Positions 6,493 through 27,603 of a stretch of 64,000 nucleotides of DNA are shown here, one piece after another. Made by a program: the position numbers and the translations under genes. A model generated the notes under the pieces. It was not told the DNA's origin, did no database searches, and saw nothing but the letters and a program-made list of their open reading frames with translations. Numbering within the stretch: the stretch's first letter is position 1; each line of letters starts with the position of its first letter. This DNA comes from a virus (Duplodnaviria > Caudoviricetes): IMG/VR virus record IMGVR_UViG_3300047160_009226, positions 32,001 to 96,000 of that record; one strand, written 5' to 3'.

Positions 6493-7550
6493 TTGATCCA
6501 GCTAACCATACTTCTCACTCTTTCTGCCAAATCACAGAATACCTCCTCTCCCTCCTCACCCAAGCTCTCACCAATACTCTCCAATTCATTAGATACAGAT
6601 TCCAGTCTCGCGGTAGCCACTCGCCTCACCTGAGATGGGGATCTCATCCACCGTCGACTAGCTGCAGGAAATGGTGCGGGTGCTGGAGGTACTCCCCCCG
6701 GAACCGGTGGAGGTCCTCCCGCTGGTGGCATACCACCTGGCATAGGTGCTGGAGCAGGTGGAGCCCCTGCACCAAAAGGCATCTCTCCTCCCGGAGGCAT
6801 GCCAAGATCTGGTGGGATAGATTGTTCTGGAGGAGCGGCAGCAGCCCCTTGATCTCCTGCCGGAGCTACTGGCTGTTCAGGAGCTTCCTCCTCAATTTCT
6901 TCTTCTACACCCGTATCCTCTGGTCCAAACCGTACAGGAGGTTCTGCTGGAGTAGATTTCTCGTCAATATCTTCAGCGATAAGTTGATGGATATGATCAG
7001 ATACCTTGACTATCTCTGCTTCAGCGTCTTCATCTGGAATCTGGCCAACAAACTGCTCAGCCCCAGAGTCGAAACCGGATATCTGTACTTTTCCATCATC
7101 GTCTACTGTAACTTTCCAAGAAAGATCTTGCACACGAATAGAAAGTTCATTAGGTGCGGATTCCTCAACTACTGCGTCTGCTTCTCCCAATTCGGCCCAG
7201 ATCATTCCCGCAAGTAATTTCAGCCTTGACTTTCTAAGAGTCTCTTTCCCTATCTCATCATCGTTATAATCTAAACCATCATCATCGTCATCATCATCAT
7301 CACCACCAAATAACAAAACACTTTTTTCTCCTTTTTCATACTTATCTTCATCTTCATCGGCTTCTTCCCTAAGATCATCTGTATCTCGATAGATCTTAGC
7401 TGTAGGCTCTACTTCAGTGATTGGAGGTTTGATGTGTTTATCTGGACGATACTCATCCTCATCAAGTGGTTGTGCCGTACGACGTGCATCAGTTGCAACT
7501 CTAGAAGTTCCATTGACCAGAATAGATGCCAATCTATTAATGCGATCCAT
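6489..7550 (-). CDS. acidic/Pro-rich head-associated protein (RxA motifs)
   Basis: 353 aa; N-terminal RLAS..RVAT..RRTA, poly-Asp tract, Pro/Gly-rich segment, RRVATA. Confidence 0.5.
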   Translation of the reverse strand: MDRINRLASILVNGTSRVATDARRTAQPLDEDEYRPDKHIKPPITEVEPTAKIYRDTDDLREEADEDEDKYEKGEKSVLLFGGDDDDDDDDGLDYNDDEIGKETLRKSRLKLLAGMIWAELGEADAVVEESAPNELSIRVQDLSWKVTVDDDGKVQISGFDSGAEQFVGQIPDEDAEAEIVKVSDHIHQLIAEDIDEKSTPAEPPVRFGPEDTGVEEEIEEEAPEQPVAPAGDQGAAAAPPEQSIPPDLGMPPGGEMPFGAGAPPAPAPMPGGMPPAGGPPPVPGGVPPAPAPFPAASRRWMRSPSQVRRVATARLESVSNELESIGESLGEEGEEVFCDLAERVRSMVSWIN

Positions 7551-7634
7551 ATCCGCTCTCTCAGTAATCTTGATAGAATCAATCTACCCTAAACCTACAC
7601 TATGACCCATTCCCGCACCAAACCGCCTTTCAAG

Positions 7635-8318
7635 TTATTCCATCTTTTCGCTGAAAATGGCTTCCAAAAGTTCCTCAGTTGAAAGTTCCTCCCTCATACC
7701 TACAGGGAAGTCACCTCTGCCCACCCCACTCTTTTTAATATCCCATCTACCTTGACTCTTAATAGATCTCAACTGATTTAAATTACGCTCAATTAGTTTT
7801 AATAGCTTTAATTCTTTGCTGTTAGAATAGTATGTCTCCATACGACTGATCGCCAACTGATATAGATACCTAATACTTCCCTGAGATAATCCTAATGCAT
7901 TTGCTGTAGCCACCTGAGATGATGTCCTCACCACTCCAGTGATTGCCCTGACATTCTCACTGGTAAATCCCAAATCAAAAAGAGTTCGTCGTAATTGAGT
8001 CTCAGATGCTAAATTAAAAATACGGTAATGAAGACAGATTCTCTCAGATGCACGGATGACTCTATAAGAGATGTTCTGTTGTTTCACAGAGTACATCTTA
8101 CGTGCTTCTTCCTGTACCAATCCCTTAACCTTAACCAAGTAGATAAACTGAAGTTCTCTGGGAGGGAGTGCTTGTAAAGAACGTCTCAGGAAACTCAACT
8201 GTCTGATCGTCTCTAACGGTATCTTCCTCCTTTTAGGCAATGGAGACCAATCTGGATCGTCCTTCACCAGACGATCTAGTGCCTCCTGGTCGGCCTGTAG
8301 GAAGAGATGCTTTTCCAT
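7635..8318 (-). CDS. sigma-70 region 4-like HTH protein with two HTH units
   Basis: LQALPPRELQFIYL..KGLVQEEARKMYSVKQQNISYRVIRA and SQVATANALGLSQGSIRYLYQLAISRM; no region 2 recognisable; start MEKHL (track 8357). Confidence 0.6.
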   Translation of the reverse strand: MEKHLFLQADQEALDRLVKDDPDWSPLPKRRKIPLETIRQLSFLRRSLQALPPRELQFIYLVKVKGLVQEEARKMYSVKQQNISYRVIRASERICLHYRIFNLASETQLRRTLFDLGFTSENVRAITGVVRTSSQVATANALGLSQGSIRYLYQLAISRMETYYSNSKELKLLKLIERNLNQLRSIKSQGRWDIKKSGVGRGDFPVGMREELSTEELLEAIFSEKME

Positions 8319-8322
8319 TGCA

Positions 8323-9288
8323 TCACTCTTGATGTGTGAACAAAGGGGTCTTCCCACTTTCTTCTAGTAAGTTCCATTCCTTTCTATCAACAAAGTGGCC
8401 CATCTCTAAGATAGAGCATAATTTCTTGATGTTTGAACTGTTGCCTATTGTTCCCTCTAAAACAGACAGATTATCATCAACACTATATAAATTAAATAGT
8501 TTATAGTTCCTTTCAATGATATCCTTCCCCGAAGTAAATTTCTCTTTCTGAAGTGCCGTTTGAAAAACAGACCCCTCATCAATAACTTGAAACAAACTCT
8601 CTAAAGAATTACAACAATTGATCAGGTCTAAAATTATTGACTTAGGAATACGAGGAATCCCCTTTACAGGCCCGCCATCTCCTTCAATGGCCCAACGCAA
8701 TGGCAGTCTCTTGGGCTCGACTCCCCAAAAACCCTGAATCTCTTTCTCTCCCCAAATCGCGTCCTCTTCGCCCTTATTACGGGCAAGTCTTAATATGTAT
8801 GTGTAATCAGACACCAACTGATGTAAATCTTCATCATTGGAAATAATCAAAGAAGTCAGTCCAAAACTTTCAGCTTTTCTTGTAAAAAAGGCAATCTGCT
8901 CATCGGCTTCGTTGTTCTTATGGTAAAGAGAGTGGACCAATGTCCTAAACTTATCACGAAGATTTCCGAGTCGAACACCCCAGTCCGGCTCATTTTCCTT
9001 ATCTTCTGGATTCTTCCGACCTGCCTTATATCCATAGATTTTGCCAGTTGTTTCGTCAGTAATACGAGGAAAAATCGAAAGCCCTCTCGTCGGCTCCCCA
9101 TCCCATACCAAAACAAGTCTTGCAGGATACCAACTCCTGACAATCACCATAATCGCTTGAATAAATCCATATTCCAAACCACAAAAAATATCTTTACTTG
9201 TCTTCCGAAATCGGTTGTTCCACCAACTGCGGTATGCTAAATTACTACAATCTATTATCACGAAATCAAACTTATTTTCCTGATTCAT
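8323..9288 (-). CDS. 5'-3' exonuclease / flap endonuclease (Pol I N-terminal, T5 D15-like)
   Basis: IIDCSNLAYR, LVWDG, YKAGR, EADEQIA, IISNDEDLHQL motifs; start MNQENK (track 9351). Confidence 0.9.
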   Translation of the reverse strand: MNQENKFDFVIIDCSNLAYRSWWNNRFRKTSKDIFCGLEYGFIQAIMVIVRSWYPARLVLVWDGEPTRGLSIFPRITDETTGKIYGYKAGRKNPEDKENEPDWGVRLGNLRDKFRTLVHSLYHKNNEADEQIAFFTRKAESFGLTSLIISNDEDLHQLVSDYTYILRLARNKGEEDAIWGEKEIQGFWGVEPKRLPLRWAIEGDGGPVKGIPRIPKSIILDLINCCNSLESLFQVIDEGSVFQTALQKEKFTSGKDIIERNYKLFNLYSVDDNLSVLEGTIGNSSNIKKLCSILEMGHFVDRKEWNLLEESGKTPLFTHQE

Positions 9289-10042
9289 CACATTCTCCAT
9301 CATTACTAATTCGAACCACTTCATCAAAAGTTTTATCATCCCACACATCATATGTAAGTAAAATTTTATCTAAGACTTCATTTGGAATCTGGTAAATCTT
9401 GTTATCTATACTAAGCTTGGTTTTTCTAATACCACAACGCAGAATCTGCACCCGTGGTAATTCACCAAAATTAAACTTGTGCTTATGATTAAAATCATGC
9501 CCATTAATAGAAAGATCAAAATCAGGTGCTTTACTCTCGCTCTTGCGGAGAAGTGTTCGTCTGGAAGATTTTCTAACATGATGAACTGGAAAAGTTACTT
9601 GCAATGATTCCTGACCCAAGTATACTAATACATTAACGTTGTCTCCGACTACAAACTGCACTGTTCCAAAATTATGCCTCAAAGGCCCTGAAATAACTTT
9701 TACTGCATCTCCTCCATCTAATGTAACTTCTGCATCTGCTTTATCCTTAATGTCCCATACCTGATCATTTGTTAACAACTGAGGTTTCCTCGTATGAGGA
9801 TCTTTCAAAATTCGAACAATCTCATCGAGATTCTCTAAAACATAATAGTCAATCCCTTCTTCATAATTAATAAACGTATACTCTCCAAATCCAGTATCAT
9901 TCTTTCCAAATGGATCCTCATACACAGGAATATAAATATACAAAGGTTCTTGGTACAGAACATTAGAGATCGAAGCCTTGATATCTTCGACAGGCAGGTG
10001 ATTCTTCGCCCAGATGGAGAGCTGCGCAATGATCCAATCCAT
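9272..10042 (-). CDS. NusG/RfaH-like transcription elongation factor (NGN + KOW)
   Basis: YIPV...FGEYTFI NGN-like core; GDAVKVISGPLRHNFGTV KOW motif. Confidence 0.7.
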   Translation of the reverse strand: MDWIIAQLSIWAKNHLPVEDIKASISNVLYQEPLYIYIPVYEDPFGKNDTGFGEYTFINYEEGIDYYVLENLDEIVRILKDPHTRKPQLLTNDQVWDIKDKADAEVTLDGGDAVKVISGPLRHNFGTVQFVVGDNVNVLVYLGQESLQVTFPVHHVRKSSRRTLLRKSESKAPDFDLSINGHDFNHKHKFNFGELPRVQILRCGIRKTKLSIDNKIYQIPNEVLDKILLTYDVWDDKTFDEVVRISNDGECDESGK

Positions 10043-10072
10043 TAAACTACATGCCCTCTTTCTCTTAGTTTC

Positions 10073-10450
10073 TCAACGATCATCTTCAGAGGGTATCCGC
10101 ATCACTTTCATTGCATCTTGCCACCCACATTGATATCCCCAATGCAAAAGCCATTCATATTCTTCAGGATATTCATCAAGGCAACCATTTCGACAGCTAT
10201 CAGAACACTCACTAGGAGGGTTTAAAGATGACCAATATGTCCCCCATGGCAAAACAATTGCCGTAATCCCACTTGGCAATGATCGTTTCAACTCCTCTGT
10301 CACTTTATCATACCATAAATTAGTAGAAAAAACTTCTTCAACTGGCTGTATTACAATTACACTATTTGGAGCGGTCATAAACTTTGATAGTATGCACCTC
10401 AGCGTCTCAACAGTCGTCCTCTCGATGTCAGACATGATTTTCTCTCCCAC
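10073..10450 (-). CDS. hypothetical protein
   Basis: ORF fills the gap in the operon. Confidence 0.6.
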   Translation of the reverse strand: MGEKIMSDIERTTVETLRCILSKFMTAPNSVIVIQPVEEVFSTNLWYDKVTEELKRSLPSGITAIVLPWGTYWSSLNPPSECSDSCRNGCLDEYPEEYEWLLHWGYQCGWQDAMKVMRIPSEDDR

Positions 10451-10465
10451 TAGTTGTGATAGTAC

Positions 10466-11698
10466 CTAACCATCGATTTTTTCCGTAACCTTGTCCTCAG
10501 ATACTCCATTGTCTTCCATTCTATTAAGCCCAAAAAGATCAACAAGTCCTTCTTCAGTCAAAATTCTATCCCTTCTAAGACCAGCGGCAAGTATCTGTGC
10601 TTTTGTGATGCCTGCTCGTCTTACTGAAGATTCACTTACAACATCCGTCACACCCAACTTATCTCTCAACAATTTAAACACAACCAAAAGATCGGAGACT
10701 GTTTTCACGTGCAATCTAGCGCCATCCCCTAACGACCACTCTGCAACCGACGAAAGCCTCATTCCATGCTTATCAGAGATTTGTCTTACATTAGAAGAAA
10801 CTTTATAAGACGGCTGACTGACACCAAGAAAAGCCTGCCCCAAAACCCTGCGGACCATTAACCAAATATCCTCAGGAGCCACCTCTTGGCTTAACCCCTC
10901 AGTCATCTGAATTGTAGCTTCCCAAGATTCTCCGACACAAATCAAGAGATTGGTCGCCTTTTCTTCGAAGTCAAGATTCAAGTGCTGCCTAACAGACTCC
11001 AGAGTAATCGACCCATAAAGAGAAATTTGATATGCAAGATTTAGTGTATTTCTAATGTGTCCTCTTGTCTCCTCCACAATCAACTGAAGTGCATCATCCT
11101 CAGAAGAGACGCCTTCATGTATCACAATGGTTTTAAGAAAATCAAATACTATCTTCGTATCTACAGGAGATACATTTATCTTAATACACCTAGATCTAAT
11201 TGTGGAAAGAAGTTTCTCTGGATTTGTTGTCACTAAAAGAATACATGTTTTTCCGATCCCTTCCTCTAAGGATTTGAGCAGTTTGTTTTGTGCCTGACTC
11301 GACAGAGAATGTGCCTCATCAATCACAAGAACGCGACGCGGTGCGTTCATGGGAGCAATGCGAGCTTCTTCCATGAGTTTTTCGATGTCGTCAACGTGAC
11401 CCGCTGATGCTGCGTCCTGCTCGCAGTAATTAGGCGACTCACCCTCTGCCAGATCCATCTGACAGTTCCAGCACTGACCGCATGCTTCTTTCTGAGGTGT
11501 TAAATTCTCACAAGTCAGCAGTCGCCCTATAATTCGTGAAAGAGATGTTTTTCCCCCTCCGAAAGATCCTGAAACTAATAATGCTGCTGGAAAATTAGGT
11601 CGATCCAATGCTCCAGAGATGATTCGTTTCGGAATATCTTGTCCTAGTAGTTCACCCATTGTTGTTGGACGATACTTGAGCGCCCAGATATCCCTCAT
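10466..11698 (-). CDS. dnaX: DNA polymerase III gamma/tau clamp loader subunit
   Basis: WALKYRPTT..LLGQD, Walker A GSFGGGKTS, CxxC zinc motif (CGQCWNC), VIDEAH, LLKSLEE, TIRSRC. Confidence 0.92.
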   Translation of the reverse strand: MRDIWALKYRPTTMGELLGQDIPKRIISGALDRPNFPAALLVSGSFGGGKTSLSRIIGRLLTCENLTPQKEACGQCWNCQMDLAEGESPNYCEQDAASAGHVDDIEKLMEEARIAPMNAPRRVLVIDEAHSLSSQAQNKLLKSLEEGIGKTCILLVTTNPEKLLSTIRSRCIKINVSPVDTKIVFDFLKTIVIHEGVSSEDDALQLIVEETRGHIRNTLNLAYQISLYGSITLESVRQHLNLDFEEKATNLLICVGESWEATIQMTEGLSQEVAPEDIWLMVRRVLGQAFLGVSQPSYKVSSNVRQISDKHGMRLSSVAEWSLGDGARLHVKTVSDLLVVFKLLRDKLGVTDVVSESSVRRAGITKAQILAAGLRRDRILTEEGLVDLFGLNRMEDNGVSEDKVTEKIDG

Positions 11699-15474: not shown

Positions 15475-16167
15475 CTATTCCTTGCTCTGAATCAAACCAT
15501 TTTTCCTAAGCTTATCAAGAACCAACTCTCGAAGCCATTTCTGACGCTCTTCTGTAGGCATCTGATCATCAGGAATGTCTTCAGAGCAAGCAAAATCTCC
15601 CTGAACATGTTTTTCTGCTTCTTTACGCATGAACCAGACTTCATTCTTCTTCGGTAAAACAGGGAACCAAACTCGTAAACGATCAACAGTAACTTTAGTA
15701 TGATACCCTTTCCCTGCTTTATAAACACCTTTAGGTAATTGATTAGACCCATACTTTCTTTTATTCATTCTATTTTGAGAAACAGTAGCATCTCTCAGAT
15801 TTTCTTTTCTGTTATCTCGTGTATCATGGTTCTTGTGATCTCCTTCACCATTCCAATGCCCATACCCATGCCCACCACCATAAGAGAGACCTAATATTTC
15901 CCTCGACATATAAACAGTAATCCATTCTCCATTTATCTTCTCACATCTAATAGCACAATAAGATCCAGAGCTATGACCATCACTTCTCAACCAACGAAAC
16001 TCTTCTCCATTTGTATCATGGTTAAGTTCCTGAAAGTCATCCTCATCTACCAAGACATTTCCACAAATGCCCCACTTTCTTGTATGTGGCCATCGATTAG
16101 ATCCACTAATTTTACGCCATAACTGAATCGTACAATATCCACGTAAAACTAACAATGAGTCATGCAT
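15475..16167 (-). mobile_element. free-standing HNH homing endonuclease with AP2-like C-terminal domain
   Basis: DHKNHDTRDNRKENLRDATVSQNRMN followed by KGVYK..YHTKVTV; AT-richer than its flanks. Confidence 0.85.
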
Positions 16168-16275
16168 AATTTATCTTCTACCTATAATAATTGCCTCAAA
16201 AATTCAACAACTCCTAATCCCAAAAACCATTCTTTCAAGCCATTGGATCTTGTGGCGATGAAGGCATTCCGAACA

Positions 16276-16812
16276 TCAGATTTCTCCTTGTGTTGTATCC
16301 TCAGAAGGAGCCTCACTCGCTGGAGACTCCAAATCTAGCTCAGGTAATCCAATTTCAATGGGAAAAACTTGAGCCGGAACTCTACTAAGTAAATTCATCA
16401 AATCTGAAATAGCCAACTCATAAGTTTTTTTGTCGATCTTCTCCGCAGAGATATTAGCAGGAGATAAACGCTGTTCAGAAATCTGTCGAAAGAAACTAAG
16501 AACTTGCATCCGATCTGTATGTGCAAACGTTCTAACCATTTGAGGTAATAGAGACTTGATATGCTCTCCAAGAAACACCCTCATCGGCTCTTGACAGACA
16601 AACGCCACCTGTGCTGCATGCCCTTTACACAAGAACTCATGAATTTTAACGGCTAATTCTTTAGCTTCTGGAATAAACTTTCTAACTTCGTCTTTCATTT
16701 CCTGAGGAAGGTTAAACTTAGGCTTATTACTCTCTGGAACTGTCCTCACATTGTCCATTTGCTGAATACGCTCGGCTCCGCCAGGAATAACTATCCTCCG
16801 ATCATTGCTCAT
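16276..16812 (-). CDS. hypothetical protein
   Basis: Likely start MSNDRR (track 16845). Confidence 0.6.
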   Translation of the reverse strand: MSNDRRIVIPGGAERIQQMDNVRTVPESNKPKFNLPQEMKDEVRKFIPEAKELAVKIHEFLCKGHAAQVAFVCQEPMRVFLGEHIKSLLPQMVRTFAHTDRMQVLSFFRQISEQRLSPANISAEKIDKKTYELAISDLMNLLSRVPAQVFPIEIGLPELDLESPASEAPSEDTTQGEI

Positions 16813-17485
16813 CGACCATGTCCTCAAATTCTTGAAATTGCTCATTTAAAGAAAGACTCTGTCCATCGTCTGCTGTTCTGGCAATATAAGAGTAATTAGC
16901 ATTTCTCTTAAAAACATCATCGTGAGATACAATCAATATTGAAAACCCTAATCCGCCTTTCTCTACAGGATCACAAATCCGACGAACAAGGGCTGCCGCT
17001 CGTTCTTTGTACTTGTCACTTACCTGAATCAACGGCTCGTCCAGTATGATCACTCGTGCCAGATCCGGCTGTCTGATAATCGAAAGGACTCTTAGGAGTA
17101 TACCGATAAGTGATGCCGGTCCACCTCCAAATGCCTTCATCGGATCGCCCTTGACACCACGTTTGTGATCGTGCAAGAGCGGTTTAATTGCTGGTTTGCC
17201 ATGAGAAACGTAATGATCTACTTCCAAAGACAATTCTTCATCAATAAAAGTATCTCTCAGTCCTAAGGATACAATTTTCTCTGTGATCTCTTCGCTTTCT
17301 ACACTTAACTTCTCTGCCATCATCCTGAGAACATTCTGAACATTCTGACGATCTTCCATGTCCTGCCGGGCTTCCTGAAGTTGCTGAAAAGTCTTCTCCT
17401 TAAGTTTCTTGGTGACACTCAATCGCATGTTAAACTGTTTTACATTTTCACGAAGAGCTAAACTTTCTGACATTGAAAACTCCAC
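16802..17485 (-). CDS. SbcC/Rad50-like ABC ATPase, C-terminal half only
   Basis: N-terminal coiled coil, signature-like FGGG, Walker B IILDEP, H-loop IVSHD; no Walker A. Confidence 0.8.
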   Translation of the reverse strand: MEFSMSESLALRENVKQFNMRLSVTKKLKEKTFQQLQEARQDMEDRQNVQNVLRMMAEKLSVESEEITEKIVSLGLRDTFIDEELSLEVDHYVSHGKPAIKPLLHDHKRGVKGDPMKAFGGGPASLIGILLRVLSIIRQPDLARVIILDEPLIQVSDKYKERAAALVRRICDPVEKGGLGFSILIVSHDDVFKRNANYSYIARTADDGQSLSLNEQFQEFEDMVDEQ

Positions 17486-17489
17486 CTAC

Positions 17490-18023
17490 TTAAGACTTGA
17501 TCCAACAGCCTAAACCGTTGTACTCAAAGATCTCACTCTTGTCGCCTTCGAGTTCGTGGAAAAACCTACCGACCTCTGAAAAAGATATCGTATCGTGAAA
17601 AATAACCCGTCCACCAGAACGAACAATATGATTCCAAGCCGCAAAATCCGCAGCGACTGCTTCATACGTATGAATGGCATCAATGTGCAAAAGATCTACT
17701 GGCTCACAAAATGATTTCCCGACTTCTGCTACCTGGCCTTTAATTATTTTCACATTTGGAAACAAATGGACATGCTGATTAACCCAGGCTTCTGAATCAC
17801 TGTGCAGCATGAAGTTATCAACCCCAATCACTTCAGCATCTGGATAGTGCATTGCAAAGTGAAATGTCGAAAATCCATAATCAACTCCAAGATCAACAAT
17901 TCTCTTCACCTGGCCAATATTTCCAATGAGATCACGATACCTAGACTCTAAGCCAACCCACACACTTGGTTTGTCAAAGACCTGCTGTAACATGGTAAGT
18001 ACCGATAATCTTTCACACACCAA
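17490..18023 (-). CDS. class I SAM-dependent methyltransferase (Methyltransf_24-like)
   Basis: IVDLGVDYGFST, DLLHIDAIHTYE, GGRVIFHD. Confidence 0.85.
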   Translation of the reverse strand: MVCERLSVLTMLQQVFDKPSVWVGLESRYRDLIGNIGQVKRIVDLGVDYGFSTFHFAMHYPDAEVIGVDNFMLHSDSEAWVNQHVHLFPNVKIIKGQVAEVGKSFCEPVDLLHIDAIHTYEAVAADFAAWNHIVRSGGRVIFHDTISFSEVGRFFHELEGDKSEIFEYNGLGCWIKS

Positions 18024-18038
18024 CTATCATTTTATGTA

Positions 18039-18644
18039 TCATTCGATATTAAATGCCTGAATCTTAGGATTCCTACCTATCCAGAATTCTGCTCCATGTC
18101 GCCCCCACCAGTAACCAACTCGTAAAGTCATAGGGGATGGTAACGTCCGAAGATAACTAGAATTCGCCCACCAAAAATTGCCTGAGTAATGTGGATTATT
18201 CGCCGATGGTCCATTGAGTCTCCATCGAGTTCCACATGTGTCATAGGTCTTAAGTGCATCTAAACATTTCTCATATTGATCAAAAACAACCGACTCCATT
18301 TCCATACGCCACTTGATATTCTCATCGCTGGGAGCAGAGACACCTTTTGTGTGGGCATACCAACAAGCAGCATCTTCGGATTGAATTTCCTCATACAACC
18401 ACTGAAGCGTCGGAAATTCAAACTCCTCCAGCGGACCTAACTGACGAACAAAAGCATTCTTCCCCAGTAAATCAACAAGAACAGAGATATCTTCGTTAGG
18501 ATCACCGACAACACCAACCAGAAGCCTTGATATTCTGGCGAACAATCCCGATTCATTAAGTCTTCGACACTGCTCTTGCACAAGCCCCTGCCAACCAAAA
18601 AATGTTGCCACATGATAAGCGCCGATGATCTTTCGCACACCCAC
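18039..18644 (-). CDS. putative glycosyltransferase-like protein
   Basis: WYAHTKGVS and HYSGNFWWA motifs, typical of a family seen in large viruses. Confidence 0.5.
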   Translation of the reverse strand: MGVRKIIGAYHVATFFGWQGLVQEQCRRLNESGLFARISRLLVGVVGDPNEDISVLVDLLGKNAFVRQLGPLEEFEFPTLQWLYEEIQSEDAACWYAHTKGVSAPSDENIKWRMEMESVVFDQYEKCLDALKTYDTCGTRWRLNGPSANNPHYSGNFWWANSSYLRTLPSPMTLRVGYWWGRHGAEFWIGRNPKIQAFNIE

Positions 18645-18707
18645 CGAGCCTTATAATCGGAGATAAAATCACTTCCAACCACTATACCTCCCATACTGAT
18701 TCTTACG

Positions 18708-19946
18708 CTAAGGCTTGCTTAGCTGAACCTTCTTTTCTGGCTTCTTGGCCCCTGCCTTCTTCGGTTCCTTTGGTTCATCATCATTCTCTAGATCCATCAC
18801 AGACAAAGTAACTGGAACTAATACACAACGATATGTATCGTCGTCTGTAGCTCTTTCATCTTCGATAAGAAATCTTGGCGGAACGGCTGATTCATAAAAT
18901 CTACCCTCCAAAATATCCCCTCCCATCTGGCCCAAACTGATCTCAAAAATCCGACAGTTCACTACGAATTGTATATCTTGATCTCCATCTGTTTCACGAA
19001 TAATGGGAAATCCTTCCTGTGATTTCTTCGAATCTGTAGTAAGAGTAGTGATGTAAATGAAAGAGTCTTCTTTTGATCCTGTAATCCGAACCAGTATTCT
19101 GTCAGCTTCTGCTGGTAAGAGAGTGTTCATAGTAGAGACCCCTTTCAGCAAGGTCTTCCCGTCAAACTTGATTACCGTTGGCTCTTGACTTCCAAGCTTG
19201 ACTTCACTTGGAAATATAGCGGTTTCCCCCAACACGGTAAACTTACTTCCTGATGTTGGACACTGAAAAGTATAATTCCTTCCAGAGATAGTGGTGTTTA
19301 CATCTTCTTGAAGAGCACTTAAAAAAGATATCACAGAGTTCAATGGCTTCTGCTTGAAATTCACGTGCACTGGAGGACACGGCATCCCTTCCACTCGAAT
19401 CAAATGACGTTGAGCCCCCGTAGCCAACAACCCATCTTTCAACCATGTAGCTACAGTATTTGATGATGTTGCACTAGCAGAATTAATAAATGGTTCGGCG
19501 AATTTAAAATTCTTGACAAGAGTTGCTGCACTAACCGAAAACGTCTCATACAATTGACCTCCAGCGGGAGTTTTAGGATACGGAATTGGATCCTCTTCAG
19601 GGATTCTCCATATCGTAACTCCACGAGTCAACGTAATTTGACCGTCTTCCTTAGTGATCTCGAAAGCAAGCCCATCATCCATCTTTGATAGAAAGTCATT
19701 GAGTTTAGATGAAGGAAGTACGATATCGTATACATCCTCAAACGGTTCCTCTGTCGGAATTATCCACGTCAACCAAGAAGATCCGTCTGTCGCATAAAGT
19801 GCCAACCCAGAACTTGGATCTGCCACCAGTCGATAATGATTCAGCCAAGGATATCTCTTGTTGGAGCCACCTCCAGAAATGTCTCTGACCTGATTTGCAA
19901 CTTTTGCCGCGAGCTTCAACTCAGCAGGGCGAACCTTGATCGACAT
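18708..19946 (-). CDS. dnaN: DNA polymerase III beta sliding clamp
   Basis: LALYATDG, IVLPSSKL..FL, YPKTP; three-domain length; dnaX present nearby. Confidence 0.7.
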   Translation of the reverse strand: MSIKVRPAELKLAAKVANQVRDISGGGSNKRYPWLNHYRLVADPSSGLALYATDGSSWLTWIIPTEEPFEDVYDIVLPSSKLNDFLSKMDDGLAFEITKEDGQITLTRGVTIWRIPEEDPIPYPKTPAGGQLYETFSVSAATLVKNFKFAEPFINSASATSSNTVATWLKDGLLATGAQRHLIRVEGMPCPPVHVNFKQKPLNSVISFLSALQEDVNTTISGRNYTFQCPTSGSKFTVLGETAIFPSEVKLGSQEPTVIKFDGKTLLKGVSTMNTLLPAEADRILVRITGSKEDSFIYITTLTTDSKKSQEGFPIIRETDGDQDIQFVVNCRIFEISLGQMGGDILEGRFYESAVPPRFLIEDERATDDDTYRCVLVPVTLSVMDLENDDEPKEPKKAGAKKPEKKVQLSKP

Positions 19947-19983
19947 AAATCATCCTCTCTTCAGGTACAGAATTGTTACTCGT

Positions 19984-20676
19984 TCACGTCCAGTTCTTGC
20001 CCTTGCTCTGAAAGAAACCAGTGTGAGCATAATCTTTATGTTGCCCATCAACATAAGAGTGTCCAGGCAATTGAACAGCGATATTAGGCCACAATGCATA
20101 GCACCTGTGAGATTTTTGTAGTTGATATCCCATCATAACATCCATAGGATTAGTAACTTTAAGATTCAGCATTGCAAGCATCATTTTAGTTCTTAGTCCA
20201 ACGCAGTGCGTCATAAATGATGTGTTACATCTTAATACATTGGGAGCCAATTCTTCAGTTATAGCCCAATAATGATTTGCTCCATAATAAAGGCAATCCC
20301 ACGAAGGTAATCTTCGTAGTTGCTCGGTAGCTAGTTTCAAAATTTCATCGAAATTTGGAATAAATTCACAGTCATCTTCTAGTAACAAGAAGCTCTTCAC
20401 CTTGTCATGGATAGCTTGCTGTAATACAGATCTAATCGCTATCGTTATAGCATAACTCCCTAGACCCGCTCTCCAATTTCTAGGGAGATCACTCTCTCGA
20501 AGAATTTGCTTATACCGCTCCTTGGGAAATAATTCGCCTTTGCCATTTAGCCAAAAATGTATCCTGTCCTCTCTCACTCCATGAGCCATCAACATCTTCT
20601 TGATTCGAGGAGCGTGTTCCTCATATCGATGGTCTACGCTCACGCAAGCAACTCTATCGTAATCGCATAAGTACAT
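19984..20676 (-). CDS. glycosyltransferase family 25-like
   Basis: CVSVDHR, LLLEDDCEF, THCVGL, D(V)MMG motifs. Confidence 0.75.
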   Translation of the reverse strand: MYLCDYDRVACVSVDHRYEEHAPRIKKMLMAHGVREDRIHFWLNGKGELFPKERYKQILRESDLPRNWRAGLGSYAITIAIRSVLQQAIHDKVKSFLLLEDDCEFIPNFDEILKLATEQLRRLPSWDCLYYGANHYWAITEELAPNVLRCNTSFMTHCVGLRTKMMLAMLNLKVTNPMDVMMGYQLQKSHRCYALWPNIAVQLPGHSYVDGQHKDYAHTGFFQSKGKNWT

Positions 20677-20677
20677 T

Positions 20678-20995
20678 CTACCTCTTCTGATCCAAAGCTA
20701 ACAGCGACTGTTCCGCTGCATCAAGTTGAGTCTTCAACTGTGTTAATGAGGTCTCGTACTCGACTGTACGCTTCTTAACCTCTTCAGATGATTTGACCAA
20801 GTCGGCCTGAATCGTTTGAGGAGAAGTCCCCAACGTCTTCATCTCTCCCACGATTCGAGTCAAATCTCGTTGTGCAGCCGCATGACGTTCACCCATAGCT
20901 GCTTGACGACGAATCAGATCTTCGCGAATTGCGTCCAATTCACGTAATCGTGCCAAAAACTTCTCTGCCTCAGACCCATTCGTACCGTCTGACAT
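20678..20995 (-). CDS. coiled-coil protein, candidate middle piece of the split SbcC
   Basis: 105 aa, heptad pattern throughout. Confidence 0.5.
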   Translation of the reverse strand: MSDGTNGSEAEKFLARLRELDAIREDLIRRQAAMGERHAAAQRDLTRIVGEMKTLGTSPQTIQADLVKSSEEVKKRTVEYETSLTQLKTQLDAAEQSLLALDQKR

Positions 20996-21002
20996 TTTCC
21001 CC

Positions 21003-21380
21003 TCACTTGTGCTCTAAACTTGGTAAATGAGAACATAAAGAAGATGTTATTCCTTGAGAGAAACATCTCTTCTTCCACTCCTCATATTCGCTGATAATGG
21101 CCTCCAGGATTCTCATGAGTACCAATCTCTGGTCAAATGAAAACGTCTCTTCTTTACTTACTAGCTCCCCCGCCCTTTGAATCGCGGATTCCCCAATTCC
21201 ACCCATGATCTGCTTAGCTAGATCCATCACAGCCGGACAATTGATCTCTGTGTTCATAGGCATATCCGGATAACGTAATGCTGTTCGAATCTTTTTCTCC
21301 AAAACGTCCCACCGAAGTTGCTCCCAGAATTGATCGAAAAATTCCATTTTATGAACTTTTTCTGGAACGGAACTATTCAT
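21003..21380 (-). CDS. hypothetical protein
   Basis: Translationally coupled ORF. Confidence 0.6.
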   Translation of the reverse strand: MNSSVPEKVHKMEFFDQFWEQLRWDVLEKKIRTALRYPDMPMNTEINCPAVMDLAKQIMGGIGESAIQRAGELVSKEETFSFDQRLVLMRILEAIISEYEEWKKRCFSQGITSSLCSHLPSLEHK

Positions 21381-22417
21381 AAATCTCCCCCTTCCGCTTG
21401 GAGCAAATATTCTTTCGTCAGACTTGCTACTCGTGAAGAAACAGATCCACTGGTCTCGATAAAATTGAGTAAAACATCAATGGTTGTTCCCTTTGTCTGT
21501 AATCTGCGACACTCTTCTATAAACATGTGCTCAACTTCTTGTCGTTTCTTTTCTTTTTTTTGGTTATCGAAATTAAATACATATTCAGGTGCGTCATGAG
21601 CAATAGTAATCAATTCAATCTCATGATGCCCATTCGATTCGAAATTAATACTGACCATCTTCGGTTCACGACCAATATCCTTCTCGGCAATAGTACCACG
21701 AAGCAAAGCCCCTGGTTCTATAATATACTTGAAACTACCGTCATCATCTTCAAGAACTTGAACCCCTTTAAGAGAGTGATCATGACCAGCCAATACCACA
21801 TCAATTCCAGTATCGATAATTTCATCGTACGAAGTAATTGGCTCTCCAAATTGATAACCACAATAAGGTCCGAAAAAACCATGACAAAGCGCTAAAGCAA
21901 AAACAGGAACTCCATACTCCTTAGATATATCCGTCTTCCATTCAATCAGTGTTTCTTCATCCCGGAGGCTTTCCAACCAAGCTGCGGGGCCATCAGCGTG
22001 AAATTCTTTACCTGTAATTAAAATAACAGGATCTAATCCGATCAGTGCATAATTCGGCCACATGACCGATGTGATCAATCCAGCTTTTTCCAGACATCCA
22101 TAAGGATGGCTTCTGAGTGAATCTACCTTATGGCCAAACAAATCGTGGTTTCCAGGGATGGTAAACCACGGAGCCGGTGCCTTACGGAACTTCTCCATGA
22201 GCCATTGATCAACCATGCGATCAATAAGCTGTCCTTTAGGCTGATTAAAGAGATCTCCCCCGTGCACAAGTGCTCGGGCTTGAATTTCTTTTGAAATCCG
22301 AAAGAACTCGTCGAGTTTTTTGGATTGAGTAGCGATCCAATCCTCATCCGTTCGGGATGCTGGTCTCCGATTCGACCAGTGAGAATCAACTATTCCTGTA
22401 ATAGGCGTGTTTCCCAT
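21377..22417 (-). CDS. SbcD/Mre11-like metallophosphoesterase nuclease
   Basis: DSHW, GGDLF, PGNHD, GHDH metallophosphoesterase motifs, PGAL. Confidence 0.88.
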   Translation of the reverse strand: MGNTPITGIVDSHWSNRRPASRTDEDWIATQSKKLDEFFRISKEIQARALVHGGDLFNQPKGQLIDRMVDQWLMEKFRKAPAPWFTIPGNHDLFGHKVDSLRSHPYGCLEKAGLITSVMWPNYALIGLDPVILITGKEFHADGPAAWLESLRDEETLIEWKTDISKEYGVPVFALALCHGFFGPYCGYQFGEPITSYDEIIDTGIDVVLAGHDHSLKGVQVLEDDDGSFKYIIEPGALLRGTIAEKDIGREPKMVSINFESNGHHEIELITIAHDAPEYVFNFDNQKKEKKRQEVEHMFIEECRRLQTKGTTIDVLLNFIETSGSVSSRVASLTKEYLLQAEGGDL

Positions 22418-22423
22418 AATCTT

Positions 22424-22690
22424 CTATAATCCACTCTCAAAAGACTTCGATGCTAATTCCCAAAGAAATTCTTCTGAAGCAGATCCGGCTCCAATGTGAG
22501 GACTCCCTTCACTGCCATCTTTAGATTGACTAATTGCATATTTCTCGATTTTATCAAGAGCATTCGCGAGTTCTTCCCACCTTGCTGCTCTCCTTCTGAG
22601 GCGATTAGCACGATCACGCATCGCAGTTATCGCGCTTATTCTCCGCACCTTGCTAGAAGCTTCCTGACTTTTATTTGAAGGATTCATCAC
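22424..22690 (-). CDS. hypothetical protein
   Basis: ORF in operon. Confidence 0.5.
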   Translation of the reverse strand: MMNPSNKSQEASSKVRRISAITAMRDRANRLRRRAARWEELANALDKIEKYAISQSKDGSEGSPHIGAGSASEEFLWELASKSFESGL

Positions 22691-22718
22691 CCCTCATCCT
22701 TTCTTATATCTTTGTCCT

Positions 22719-23294
22719 TTATGTCGTCTCAAACCGCATCCCTTTCCATTTATTTGCTAATAACGCATGATATCTCCAGAAATCTCTATGCCACACTTCC
22801 CTTTCACTGAGAGTATGGTCCGAATCCTTGTGTGAAGCATCAGCTGCTGGAACTATAACTTCCATTCCAATCTTTTGCGCCTGTAAACATAAATCAGGAA
22901 CATGGCAATGAAAACCATTAAAGAGTACACCATCAAACCGCAAATTACATCGTATAGGAAAGAAAATAGAACAGCCGTCTAATGTCGAGACTTTTCCAGG
23001 ATTTGCATGGCACCAATGATATACACCATCTAAACTTTTCCCCACAATGCCACAAACCTTTCCCTCCATTGCAATCTTTGTAAAAATCTCCAAGGAACCT
23101 GGACCAAACCAAGCATTATTATGGCAAAGTCCGAAAACATCTCGGCTATTCTGTAAATAACGATTAGCAATCGTAGCTAAAGGTTCATGATTAATGTTGG
23201 CAACAAATACCAATTCACAATCTCCGATATGTGCTCTATCGAAGACCTTAAAAGAGTCCTCATTCTTACCAATAGCCACAAGGGTTAATTGCAC
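22719..23294 (-). CDS. glycosyltransferase-like family 2 protein
   Basis: GLCHNN, VCGIVG, STLDGCSIFF, FHCHVPDLCLQA. Confidence 0.65.
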   Translation of the reverse strand: MQLTLVAIGKNEDSFKVFDRAHIGDCELVFVANINHEPLATIANRYLQNSRDVFGLCHNNAWFGPGSLEIFTKIAMEGKVCGIVGKSLDGVYHWCHANPGKVSTLDGCSIFFPIRCNLRFDGVLFNGFHCHVPDLCLQAQKIGMEVIVPAADASHKDSDHTLSEREVWHRDFWRYHALLANKWKGMRFETT

Positions 23295-23354
23295 AAATCT
23301 CTACCCCAATCAAAGAAGGGGAGTACACTACGAACATACTCCCCTTTTCATTGA

Positions 23355-23543
23355 TCAATCGGACTTTTGATCCTCTTTACCCGGGCCTTTATTCATGATC
23401 TCTTCCCGAAAAATCTTGATTTCTGATGGGGCCTCAAATCCTATTTTAACCCGACCCTTGTGTCTGTTGATATAAGTAATCGTCATCCGAATGTTATCAT
23501 TAATGACGATAGACTCATGGAGCTTACGACTCAAAACTAGCAT
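23355..23543 (-). CDS. csrA: carbon storage regulator CsrA/RsmA
   Basis: [18 protein letters not shown]...[18 protein letters not shown]; start MLVLSRK (track 23582). Confidence 0.92.
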
Positions 23544-23574
23544 GCGTGTCCTTTCTCTCGGGGGTGAACTAGAA

Positions 23575-24792
23575 TCAAACACTAATACTTATCGCCTCTT
23601 CAGAACAATACACTCCATTCTTCATCGGAGCCAAACAAAGTGGGCATCTTTCTATTCCACCTACAAGATGATTAATCTTTTCCCGCTCTCCATCAATTTC
23701 CTTTAACTCTGTAGTAATCTCACCCATCACTCGTGCGTAAGAATCTATCTCTTTCTGTGCTTTAAGAAACTGTTCCTGGAGACTTTTTAATGAGTTAATC
23801 CGGTTTACAATTCTCTGACCATCTAATCTCTCAGGCTGCTTTGTAGATACCACCTGACCCATGATTTTAATCTGATGGGAAATCCGATTTGATTCATTAT
23901 AGAGCCTGGTGATTTCTGTGATATATTCGCGTCCATCCATTACTTCAGGAACAGTTCCCTGATTTTTCGAGGACATTTCAACTATAGAACATGCCTGAGT
24001 ATATCTCTTGTGCAAATCAATAAGTTTCTCATGATGCGAAACATCCAAAGTCACAGGAACAGTAGCCTTTGCCACTACACTAGAGACCTTCCAGCCAGTC
24101 CAAGAAGATCGATACCTTCCAACCAGATCTCGGTACGTAGACGCCTTCGTGAGTGCCTCGTTTCGGACTGTCTCAGTCTGATCCATTTTCTGTTGTAATG
24201 CGTTTAACTTTACAGCAAACTCCTCCATCCTCTCGACAGTAGTAAGTAACTCTTGATGCTGCTTTTCAAGGAATTCTGTCTTTGTCTTACACTTAGTCAC
24301 ATCAGCGTTGACAAGTTTAATTGCCCGACTAATCTTTACAGTATCCTGGCTGGCTCCCAGGAGTTCAGCCGCAATCGTGTCGGTATATGCTCCAATAATA
24401 AAAGGCTGTTCCCACTGGAAGTGAATCTGAGGCCAGTGAAGTTCTTTATCAAGAGTCTTAATAGCATAAAGACCAGTCGCCCTCACCTCATCGGGAACCG
24501 TACCCCTGCCTGGCCTATTAATCTTAACTCCATCAACTTCATATAATGTAGATTTTTGATTCTTGTACCATCTAACCTTGTGACCCAATGACTCAATAAC
24601 CACTTCACAAACCAATTCATTTTCCGTAATAAACTCGGTGCCAGCACGGTTAGATAACGCTGCATGAATAGCCCGAATTACTGCCGACTTACCCAGGTTC
24701 GACTCACCCTCGATTACACTATACCCGTCTACTAAAATTTCAACGGAATTTTTAATCGACTGAAAACCCTTAATTTTAATCTTTAAGCTCAA
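23575..24792 (-). CDS. SbcC/Rad50-like ABC ATPase, N-terminal half ending in a zinc hook
   Basis: IKIKGFQSI, Walker [10 protein letters not shown]-loop QIHFQ, coiled coil, C-terminal CPLC; no Walker B. Confidence 0.82.
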
Positions 24793-25179
24793 TTAAAGTC
24801 TCCTTAACAAATAAGGTTCAATAAAATCTTCAAGACCCTTATACTTCAAATCGGGGCGAAACTTAAACCGACCCTTAATCGGTGGTAAATTCCATTCTCC
24901 TTCTGTCACTTTAACGGGTACACTTGTTTTACCAGACAGTAAATACTCAACCATTCGATGATAACCATTCGTCAATTGATACCGTCGTGATTTAGGAAGG
25001 TATGCAACCTCCAGAGGGCCTTCAGTCACAGCCGGATAACCTCGTGCAATATTCTCCGCAGCCGCAAGTAGTTCATCCTGTGTCATGATCAAAGAATCAA
25101 TGGGTAACTCCATTAAATCTTGACGAACTGCCGTCCTATCTAAAAGGATCCGTGCTAATCGCAAAGATCTAAAATTCAT
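24793..25179 (-). CDS. ParB/sulfiredoxin-like domain protein with an RSxRLA leader
   Basis: YQLTNGYHRMVEYLLSGKTSVPV. Confidence 0.6.
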   Translation of the reverse strand: MNFRSLRLARILLDRTAVRQDLMELPIDSLIMTQDELLAAAENIARGYPAVTEGPLEVAYLPKSRRYQLTNGYHRMVEYLLSGKTSVPVKVTEGEWNLPPIKGRFKFRPDLKYKGLEDFIEPYLLRRL

Positions 25180-26469: not shown

Positions 26470-27603
26470 TCATTTGCCCCGGAATGGGGCTGCAAAAGCA
26501 GATGCCCTGCCAATCAGAGCATCGAACTGCTGGCACAACTCATGACGAGTTGAATCTGACATATCCGATACATGCTCCGTTATAAGTGCAATGTCTTGAA
26601 GCAATTTGCTATTGGAATCATTCAAGATATTTTGAAGAAGTGGAATCAAACTCTTGCGTGCATAACCATCGACGTCAACAAGTTGACTTGCTGTGAATGT
26701 CGAAGCTTTATATTTAGCAGCTTCCTCTTTGACACCACGAACTCCTATGTTACCATTGCGAAGTTGCGGAGTTGTATTCTGTATAAACTGTTTGCTTTTT
26801 TCTTTCGCCGCCGCATCATGCTGCTTAGCTTGTGCTTCTAGAATCGCAACCTGTCGATTCAGAATGCTTTTAACCTGTGGTGAAGATTCCATATCAGCCC
26901 TCTTCTGAGCGACCTTAGCTTCATCCCGATTTGCTTGAGCAACTCGCTTTTCACTTTGATAGATCGACGCTTGTTCTCTCACGATATGATCCATGTCAGA
27001 TCGCGAAAGCCCTTTCAAATTATCCTCGTGAAGAAATCCCCGGTCAATCGCATCAATAGCCCGGAACGCAGTCTCGCAGGCAAAGTTAGGTCTAAGGCCA
27101 CTCGCATGTTTTCTGGTCCATCCCAGGAATTCAGCTACGGTCGCCTTGGTATAGGAACGTAGGCCAGATCCTTGGCCCACGTTCCTGATTAGGTCCTTCC
27201 TAGTATCTCTCGGCACATTCGGAAAGTCGGGTGGTCCAATCTCGCCTCTCCCATAAGCTGCGATTACAGTTCGGATCGTCTCCAACTCAACCCAGGCCGA
27301 CGTACTCCACTCCTCCATGTTCTCACGAGCCATCATCTTAATCATTTCCGCATTGCTGAGATCCCGGATGATAATCTCGACTTTCTTTATCGCGAGTTCT
27401 TGCAAAGCCACCACTCGATGGTGACCAAATGCGATTTCAACTTGGCCTTTGACTTCTCGGCCAACAATGGTTCCCCAGAAACCCGTAGAATCGATACTCT
27501 CTTTAAGAGCATCGACCTTCTCACGGAGAATTGGATACTCATCAAGCCGTCGCCATGGATTCTCTATCAAACTTGCGACCGAAACGGTTTTCAACATCGT
27601 CAA
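26470..27603 (-). CDS. ParB N-terminal domain protein
   Basis: ENPWR, VEIAFGHHRVVAL, MMARENM. Confidence 0.75.
   Translation of the reverse strand: MTMLKTVSVASLIENPWRRLDEYPILREKVDALKESIDSTGFWGTIVGREVKGQVEIAFGHHRVVALQELAIKKVEIIIRDLSNAEMIKMMARENMEEWSTSAWVELETIRTVIAAYGRGEIGPPDFPNVPRDTRKDLIRNVGQGSGLRSYTKATVAEFLGWTRKHASGLRPNFACETAFRAIDAIDRGFLHEDNLKGLSRSDMDHIVREQASIYQSEKRVAQANRDEAKVAQKRADMESSPQVKSILNRQVAILEAQAKQHDAAAKEKSKQFIQNTTPQLRNGNIGVRGVKEEAAKYKASTFTASQLVDVDGYARKSLIPLLQNILNDSNSKLLQDIALITEHVSDMSDSTRHELCQQFDALIGRASAFAAPFRGK

Follow-up and report, generated by a model that had tools for sequence, protein, structure and literature searches.

A Rad50/SbcC-type ATPase encoded in separate pieces in a soil phage and its relatives, with a small coiled-coil protein as candidate third subunit

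In a 64,000-nucleotide stretch of a soil phage (Duplodnaviria; Caudoviricetes), corresponding to bases 32001-96000 of the 200,689-bp, 91% complete IMG/VR virus record IMGVR_UViG_3300047160_009226 (hereafter the window), the two lobes of a Rad50/SbcC-type ATPase are encoded by separate genes: an N-terminal half (N-half) whose chain ends soon after a CxxC motif at the tip of a helical arm, and a C-terminal half (C-half) consisting of a short coil and the second lobe. The genes for an SbcD/Mre11-type nuclease and for a coiled-coil protein of 105 amino acids (aa) lie between them. It is proposed that the only Rad50/SbcC-type ATPase of this phage would be assembled post-translationally from these separate polypeptides with the small protein as third subunit, an explanation to which a probability of about 0.6 is given; that a two-piece Rad50 works in trans is, taken by itself, very probable. 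An initial annotation of the sequence had suggested a split into three pieces in which the 105-aa protein supplies the missing descending coil: The protein proved to be a conserved companion of the split, whereas its role as a length-matched return coil was not upheld.

The four genes are present on the minus strand (Table 1), which carries all long open reading frames (ORFs) between 14 and 27.6 kb of the window, and SbcD and the coiled-coil ORF are located between the halves as initially described; interleaved are CsrA-like, glycosyltransferase-like, sliding clamp-like and methyltransferase genes together with several without an assigned family. The genes of the N-half, the C-half and the 105-aa protein each possess their own start codon and ribosome-binding site. 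The whole genome record contained one N-half, one C-half and no unsplit Rad50, nor was a second N-lobe or C-lobe found in it that could pair with either half; in consequence, formation in trans is the only plausible route to an ATP site, as the initial annotation had supposed. A Rad50/SbcC-like mode of working is deduced from the motifs, the fold, the profile matches and the SbcD partner.

The N-half starts with TTG, 7 nt after an AAGGAG ribosome-binding site, and matched Pfam AAA_23 (3e-6; 28.3 bits, cut-off 27) as well as phrog_16465 'exonuclease' (5e-14). Its features (Walker A, Q-loop, coil, and a chain that ends 19 residues after CPLC) agree with the initial description and are conserved among the homologues; the Q-loop glutamine is present on the N-lobe, the candidates being those within WPQ120-122 and Q126. 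The modeled N-lobe superposed on the heads of Rad50, SMC and RecF with Z values of 8.4-10.8 (root-mean-square deviation about 3 Å over 115-125 residues). Single-sequence searches of PDB sequences gave nothing for the N-half, the clamp or SbcD, and a narrow N-half profile retrieved only coiled-coil noise from the PDB.

According to the AlphaFold2 (AF2) model, the N-lobe is followed by helices at residues 149-242, 252-276, 287-315 and 325-378. Breaks of the hxVPxxxD type, conserved from lineage to lineage, separate them at intervals of about 40 residues; the arms of different lineages differ by whole ~40-aa units, the partners being unchanged: The N-halves of the loci L032 and L035 carry one additional ~40-aa unit alongside small proteins and C-halves of unchanged size. 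The internal repeat test of the arm revealed weak pairwise similarity (z 2.3-3.8 in four of six pairs). An AF2 model of the coil alone consisted of confident helices (mean predicted local distance difference test score 81; predicted template modeling score 0.28) and did not fold the arm back on itself, which is weak evidence from a model; Foldseek searches with the arm-only model gave no coiled-coil match, only chance matches of zinc-finger size. At the tip, C383 and C386 are invariant in every aligned N-half, and a third cysteine (C396, 23605-23607) lies within the 19 residues after C386. Only the Bacillus member matched the Pfam profile Rad50_zn_hook, over positions 4-33 of the 52 in the profile and below the cut-off (E 2.4e-4). 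An SMC hinge is absent, the arm terminating in CxxC, and an SbcD gene is linked, unlike in the case of RecN and RecF, which have neither a CxxC nor an Mre11 partner.

For the C-half, the initially reported short coil (about residues 5-75, ~70 residues), Walker B and H-loop were confirmed, whereas the signature position, although present, reads GGG and not SGG. G121 is invariant in an alignment of 58 C-half sequences and G120-G122 in a second C-half alignment; the family consensus at this position is SFGGG, so that a Ser-type signature is lacking. D149 and E150 are likewise invariant in the 58 sequences. A profile of these 58 relatives found its best match in the C-terminal fragment of P. furiosus Rad50 (3qkr_B, 1ii8_B; E 7.6e-10), ahead of SMC3 (3e-8); the match covers the coil plus the lobe, with Walker B, D-loop and H-loop lined up. 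The single-sequence search of the PDB with the C-half returned weak UvrA and ABC matches only. The C-half comprises 227 aa from GTG 17485, the start in the ORF list, and 223 aa from ATG 17473; the latter is probably the true start, a ribosome-binding site (AGGTGGAG) being located 6 nt upstream of it and the C-halves of relatives beginning at the equivalent methionine. In SbcD, the motifs DxH, GDLFN, GNHD and GHDH are readable and the predicted metal-binding motifs thus intact; an SbcD gene was found in every related locus that reaches this position.

The division of the enzyme is shared by many phages. Sixteen N-half homologues (31-81% identity, 390-440 aa) all end in CPxCxAPxxxGxYC, and in every N-half examined the CxxC is at most about 20 residues away from the chain end. 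A C-half search against 1.84 billion cluster representatives (E <= 0.001) yielded 738 clusters of stand-alone C-halves, the best 150 of the 738 all being 111-293 aa long and aligned end to end. Independent contigs from other samples contain the same pieces at 31-84% identity and with intact frames. The cut after the CxxC therefore appears from these sequences to be old and conserved, and the initial claim of an ATPase divided at this point is upheld; with 16 N-half homologues, 25 relatives of the small protein and 738 C-half clusters, a chance resemblance is excluded. The pieces recur together, as the synteny suggested as a check on the initial reading should reveal: A set of four, comprising an N-half, a C-half of ~210 aa, a protein of 77-107 aa with a GxxPxx(I/L) turn and SbcD, was found in the window, in its relatives L005 and L006, in the 485-kb uncultured phage LR745208 and in the Bacillus prophage phBC6A51. 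LR745208 encodes an N-half of 455 aa ending in CPVC, followed by SbcD, a Cas4-like nuclease, a ~95-aa coiled-coil protein, the clamp and a 211-aa C-half. In phBC6A51 the pieces are BC1852 (518 aa, ending in CPLC), BC1854 (77 aa), BC1855 (211 aa; hhalign 99.5% with the C-half family) and the SbcD BC1857; the set recurs in phage vB_BboS-125, where an AP2/HNH gene fills the gap and SbcD is not annotated in the stretch shown.

A fixed module is common to 20 IMG/VR loci and consists of RecD2 helicase or N-half, SbcD, Cas4-like nuclease, small protein (91-106 aa), clamp, C-half (about 210 aa) and a ~190-aa gene. The ~740-aa gene upstream of SbcD in many of these loci was considered as a long N-half and turned out to be the RecD2-type helicase; the N-half itself was located in the genomes of eight of the loci. 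In four large IMG/VR phages it ends in CP(S/T)C and is separated from the C-half by distances of 28 kb to about 200 kb; in the two complete genomes among the four it is on the opposite strand. The jumbo-phage operon (L011-L027, about 4300-10500 in each) opens with a BRCT/HhH protein before the RecD2-type helicase, and its Cas4-like nuclease is of the PD-(D/E)XK type. In the Tunturiibacter phage Tunturi_5, gp181 ('exonuclease', 485 aa) ends in CGKC, gp177 is SbcD, and the C-half is gp14 ('ATPase'), about 108 kb from gp181/gp177. The Microbacterium phage Magritte possesses a stand-alone C-half annotated 'exonuclease'; its gene 1, upstream of that gene, is not a coiled coil.

The 105-aa protein is helical by composition and belongs to a family of 25 homologues (69-123 aa) in which a central turn, GTSPQTIQ, is almost invariant between two helices of about 43 residues. 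The jumbo-phage small proteins (91-106 aa) are homologous to this family (hhalign 96.9%, E 1.7e-10), as are BC1854 and gp34 of vB_BboS-125 (hhalign 92-93% against two independent profiles, aligned on GVTPETIQ); gp180 of Tunturi_5 (97 aa, after the N-half) was not significant by hhalign and borderline in a combined HMM comparison (E 0.005), and is regarded as a look-alike only. The gene lies between those of SbcD and the C-half in the window, L005, L006, LR745208 and the 20 IMG/VR loci. In all of these the clamp gene stands between it and the C-half gene. Alternatively, the 105-aa protein might be a co-transcribed replication/recombination factor, for example an adaptor for the clamp, SbcD or the Cas4-like nuclease, or a regulator, beside a Rad50 of two pieces only: In jumbo phages its gene immediately precedes that of the clamp and comes after those of SbcD and the Cas4-like nuclease, it keeps this company even where 28 to about 200 kb separate the N-half from them, and its binding to the Rad50 halves is a prediction. 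This explanation is considered unlikely in view of the Bacillus phages. In phBC6A51 and vB_BboS-125, which have no clamp gene near, the homologue is still placed between N-half and C-half, directly upstream of the latter; the small protein is thereby separated from the clamp and tied to the split Rad50. In addition, the Tunturi_5 look-alike follows the N-half with the clamp about 108 kb away, and among the loci examined the family was met solely beside split Rad50 genes. Since it accompanies the split all the way from Bacillus to jumbo phages, it probably represents a third subunit of the enzyme; this co-inheritance makes a physical role in the complex likely, at somewhat better than even odds. 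The complex prediction for N-half, C-half and 105-aa protein (the latter as scored partner) reached 0.18 compared with a mark of 0.32, which is not evidence either way.

A stricter version of the three-piece split, close to the initial proposal, would have the pieces as colinear fission products that rebuild the canonical arm, the 105-aa protein and then the C-half coil descending antiparallel along the N-half. The gene order N-half, small protein, C-half is indeed colinear with unsplit Rad50 in the window, its relatives, jumbo phages and Bacillus phages, which fits an origin by fission, and the two ~43-aa helices of the small protein come close to the ~40-aa units of the arm. The lengths, compared in 14 lineages (N-half 386-518 aa, small protein 77-107 aa, C-half 208-235 aa), do not agree with it: Added together, small protein and C-half coil fall 48-218 residues short of the N-half arm, the window with a deficit of about 61 residues being the second smallest case, and N-half length showed no positive covariation with that of the other two pieces (Spearman -0.39, not significant). 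Indeed, the longest N-halves (471-518 aa) pair with the shortest small proteins (77-78 aa), and the additional ~40-aa units of L032 and L035 are unmatched by longer partners. Because of this excess and the missing covariation, the 105-aa protein cannot be the whole return coil. Furthermore, conservation within the small protein is highest in its central turn, contrary to what a plain coil strand would be expected to show; no fused form of the small protein was found among longer proteins (weak evidence), and a profile comparison between the small protein and the N-half arm revealed no similarity, leaving the resemblance of its turn to the arm breaks, seen by eye, unproven. The rebuilding of a canonical arm is thus quite improbable. 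Artefact or decay (mis-assembly, a pseudogenized Rad50 or two unrelated ABC-type fragments) is very improbable, although 6 kb with unrelated genes separate the two halves and the N-lobe fold is not diagnostic: Mis-assembly, named initially as a possible refutation, and pseudogenes are excluded since the split is conserved with intact frames in independent contigs and in more distant phages, cultured ones included, hundreds of stand-alone C-half clusters exist, the catalytic residues are invariant, and the genome offers no other lobe to pair with either half.

Several points weigh against an ATPase assembled from these pieces in the manner proposed. The modeled fold of the N-lobe fails to discriminate Rad50 from SMC, RecN or RecF, and the C-terminus of the window N-half has no match to Pfam Rad50_zn_hook; as many members carry a third Cys/His after the CxxC, an intramolecular zinc knuckle is possible in place of a hook. 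The family-wide replacement of the signature Ser by Gly may mean that ATP-driven head engagement differs from that of Rad50. A parallel pairing of two N-halves is suggested by the lengths alone, the mutual binding of the pieces is a prediction, and the linkage of the small protein to the clamp and to SbcD is just as good in jumbo phages.

In the proposed assembly, the N-half would contribute Walker A and Q-loop, and the C-half the signature position, Walker B, D-loop and H-loop. The ~70-residue N-terminal helix of the C-half would form an antiparallel pair with that part of the N-half helix 149-242 which is nearest the head, and an ABC head would be rebuilt from two chains in the way known from engineered Rad50 catalytic-domain constructs. 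Together with an SbcD dimer docked on them, two such heads would form a DNA-end-processing complex for recombination-dependent replication. The steps of head assembly in trans and SbcD docking rest on knowledge of the family and on gene content. The 105-aa protein would be a stably bound third subunit positioned on the arm or where the C-half coil ends. Since the small protein cannot account for the whole return strand, the distal arm of the N-half, a string of ~40-residue helices with Pro-containing breaks that ends in the CxxC, would not be a canonical intramolecular antiparallel coiled coil; most likely it would pair with the same region of a second N-half, the terminal CxxC motifs sharing a zinc ion. 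The specific arrangement in which the distal arm is a two-stranded coil between two N-halves, its tip closed by the shared zinc, and C-half and small protein act as detachable basal strands is put forward tentatively and is doubtful as a whole. If true, it would represent an Mre11-Rad50 ring with non-covalent gates, as in SMC-kleisin rings, and arm length could be changed in ~40-residue steps without change in the other subunits.

Compared with Rad50/SbcC-Mre11/SbcD systems (T4 gp46/gp47, E. coli SbcCD, P. furiosus Mre11-Rad50), the split enzyme shares a Walker A/Q-loop lobe and a Walker B/D-loop/H-loop lobe, a helical arm ending in a CPxC-type motif, a linked Mre11/SbcD phosphoesterase gene and a seat in a phage replication/recombination block beside the clamp gene, as in T4. 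In contrast to Rad50/SbcC, the window chain stops about 19 residues after the CxxC and its arm has a break every ~40 residues, the C-lobe forms a protein of its own whose coil of only ~70 residues leaves the enzyme without a full return coil, the signature Ser is replaced by Gly, and a conserved additional protein of 77-107 aa is present. Judged from the sequences, two defining features of Rad50 are hence missing, namely the signature serine and a single chain whose lobes are joined by an intramolecular antiparallel coil.

The closest parallel for the head is provided by the engineered two-chain Rad50 constructs (PDB 1F2U, 1II8, 3QKR), the C-half spanning nearly exactly the same region as their chain B (profile positions 32-204 aligned to 3-175 of the 179-residue 3qkr_B); in studies of the two-chain catalytic domain, separate N- and C-terminal fragments reportedly assemble into an active head. 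Unlike these laboratory truncations, which have neither arm nor hook, the split described here is natural, the N-half retains its 230-residue arm and the putative hook, and the genes may be up to hundreds of kb apart. The Bacillus phages (phBC6A51 BC1852-BC1857; vB_BboS-125 gp32-gp36) resemble the window in the CPLC-ended N-half, the small protein of 77-78 aa, the 211-aa C-half and SbcD (BC1857), and differ in that the pieces are contiguous with no clamp between them, the N-half measures 471-518 aa and an additional MCxKC protein follows the C-half. Their records name 'Exonuclease SbcC', hypothetical proteins, 'Chromosome segregation ATPases' and 'Exonuclease SbcD', and no split enzyme is described there. 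Splitting of essential nucleic-acid enzymes into polypeptides from sometimes distant genes, conserved within clades, is familiar from jumbo phages, in which split DNA polymerase (Pol) III alpha and split RNA polymerase (RNAP) subunits have been reported (PMC7824862). The latter enzymes are cut between globular domains, whereas the Rad50 split removes one strand of the coiled coil and thereby changes the presumed architecture of the arm. In the same review SbcC figures as a single ABC ATPase and is not among the split enzymes described (PMC7824862), the split Rad50 genes are not mentioned in the Tunturi paper (PMC11924767), and no description of a split Rad50/SbcC was found in the literature.

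With regard to the neighborhood, an HNH endonuclease gene, a methyltransferase gene and two unassigned genes occupy 15475-16167, 17490-18023, 18039-18644 and 19984-20676 of the window. At the corresponding sites in L005 and L006 these extra genes are absent, and the conserved genes of small protein, clamp and C-half directly follow one another (an HNH homologue is located elsewhere in L006). From this comparison, the extra genes appear to be insertions that stretched the module to 8 kb, the scatter being secondary. A megablast search of window positions 16000-25000 against phage records gave no match. A CsrA-like gene (23355-23582; Pfam CsrA 1.2e-18) has 8 nt in common with the end of the N-half gene and would encode a phage post-transcriptional regulator inside the recombination block; L005 and L006 also possess a CsrA-like gene between N-half and SbcD. 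A 377-aa protein with an N-terminal ParB-like domain is encoded at 26470-27603, 3 kb upstream of the N-half gene in the direction of transcription. After the C-half genes of the Bacillus phages, BC1856 (L036:6468-6845) and gp36 (L037:6870-7226) start with MCMKC and MCIKC, respectively, followed by a charged helical stretch; judging by this N-terminal CxxC plus coil, they could be a further hook-bearing piece. In the window, neither the 189-aa gene after the C-half (16276-16845) nor the 125-aa gene after SbcD had a family match or, unlike BC1856, a CxxC-plus-coil arrangement. The latter, unrelated gene stands at the place taken in jumbo phages by the Cas4-like gene, which the window lacks there.

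Table 1. Genes and motifs of the split Rad50/SbcC-type system in the window, with coordinates, strand and supporting observations.
Feature	Position	Strand	Observation
Rad50/SbcC N-half, 405 aa	23575..24792	(-)	ABC N-lobe, long interrupted helical arm, terminal CxxC; AAA_23
Walker A G29-ESNLGKS36	24685..24708	(-)	G29, G34, K35 invariant in close and distant N-half alignments
Q-loop region W120-P-Q122 ... Q126	24415..24435	(-)	all four invariant in close homologues; Q126 also in distant N-halves
Helical arm, residues 149-378	23659..24348	(-)	Pro-containing breaks at 243-251, 277-286, 316-324 (AF2)
CPLC C383-C386, zinc-hook-type motif	23635..23646	(-)	19 residues before stop
SbcD/Mre11-type nuclease, 346 aa	21377..22417	(-)	Metallophos 2e-12; phrog_100 SbcD-like
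Helix-turn-helix coiled-coil protein, 105 aa, candidate third subunit	20678..20995	(-)	25 homologues; synteny
Sliding-clamp-like protein, 412 aa	18708..19946	(-)	phrog_947 'DNA polymerase processivity factor' 1.5e-11, full length; no subunit claim
Rad50/SbcC C-half, short coil + ABC C-lobe, 227 aa	16802..17485	(-)	phrog_15167 'ATPase' 8e-10; Rad50 fragment profile match
Signature position F119-GGG-P123	17117..17131	(-)	Gly replaces Rad50 signature Ser; opposite LSGGE of P. furiosus Rad50
Walker B V145-IILDEP151, then D-loop V155-S-D157	17033..17053 (Walker B)	(-)	aligns to Rad50 LLILDEP
H-loop His H188 (IVSHD; S187-H-D189)	16922..16924	(-)	at least 90% conserved; aligns to Rad50 LVSHD

The pieces have been named separately by database annotators without being linked to each other. 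As they bear labels such as 'exonuclease', 'ATPase', 'chromosome segregation ATPase' and 'hypothetical', a survey can register such phages as devoid of a complete Rad50. Small pieces that can each be expressed separately are available from two cultured systems, namely Tunturi_5 and the B. cereus prophage phBC6A51. The family therefore offers a natural dissection of Rad50 in which the function of arm and hook is directly testable. Current models of Mre11-Rad50 assume a continuous antiparallel coiled coil, by which signals would pass between the zinc hook and the ATPase head and a ring around DNA would be closed. A family that is without the return strand and yet conserved from 60-kb Bacillus phages to 480-kb phages therefore suggests that the arm can be built differently or that its continuity is dispensable.

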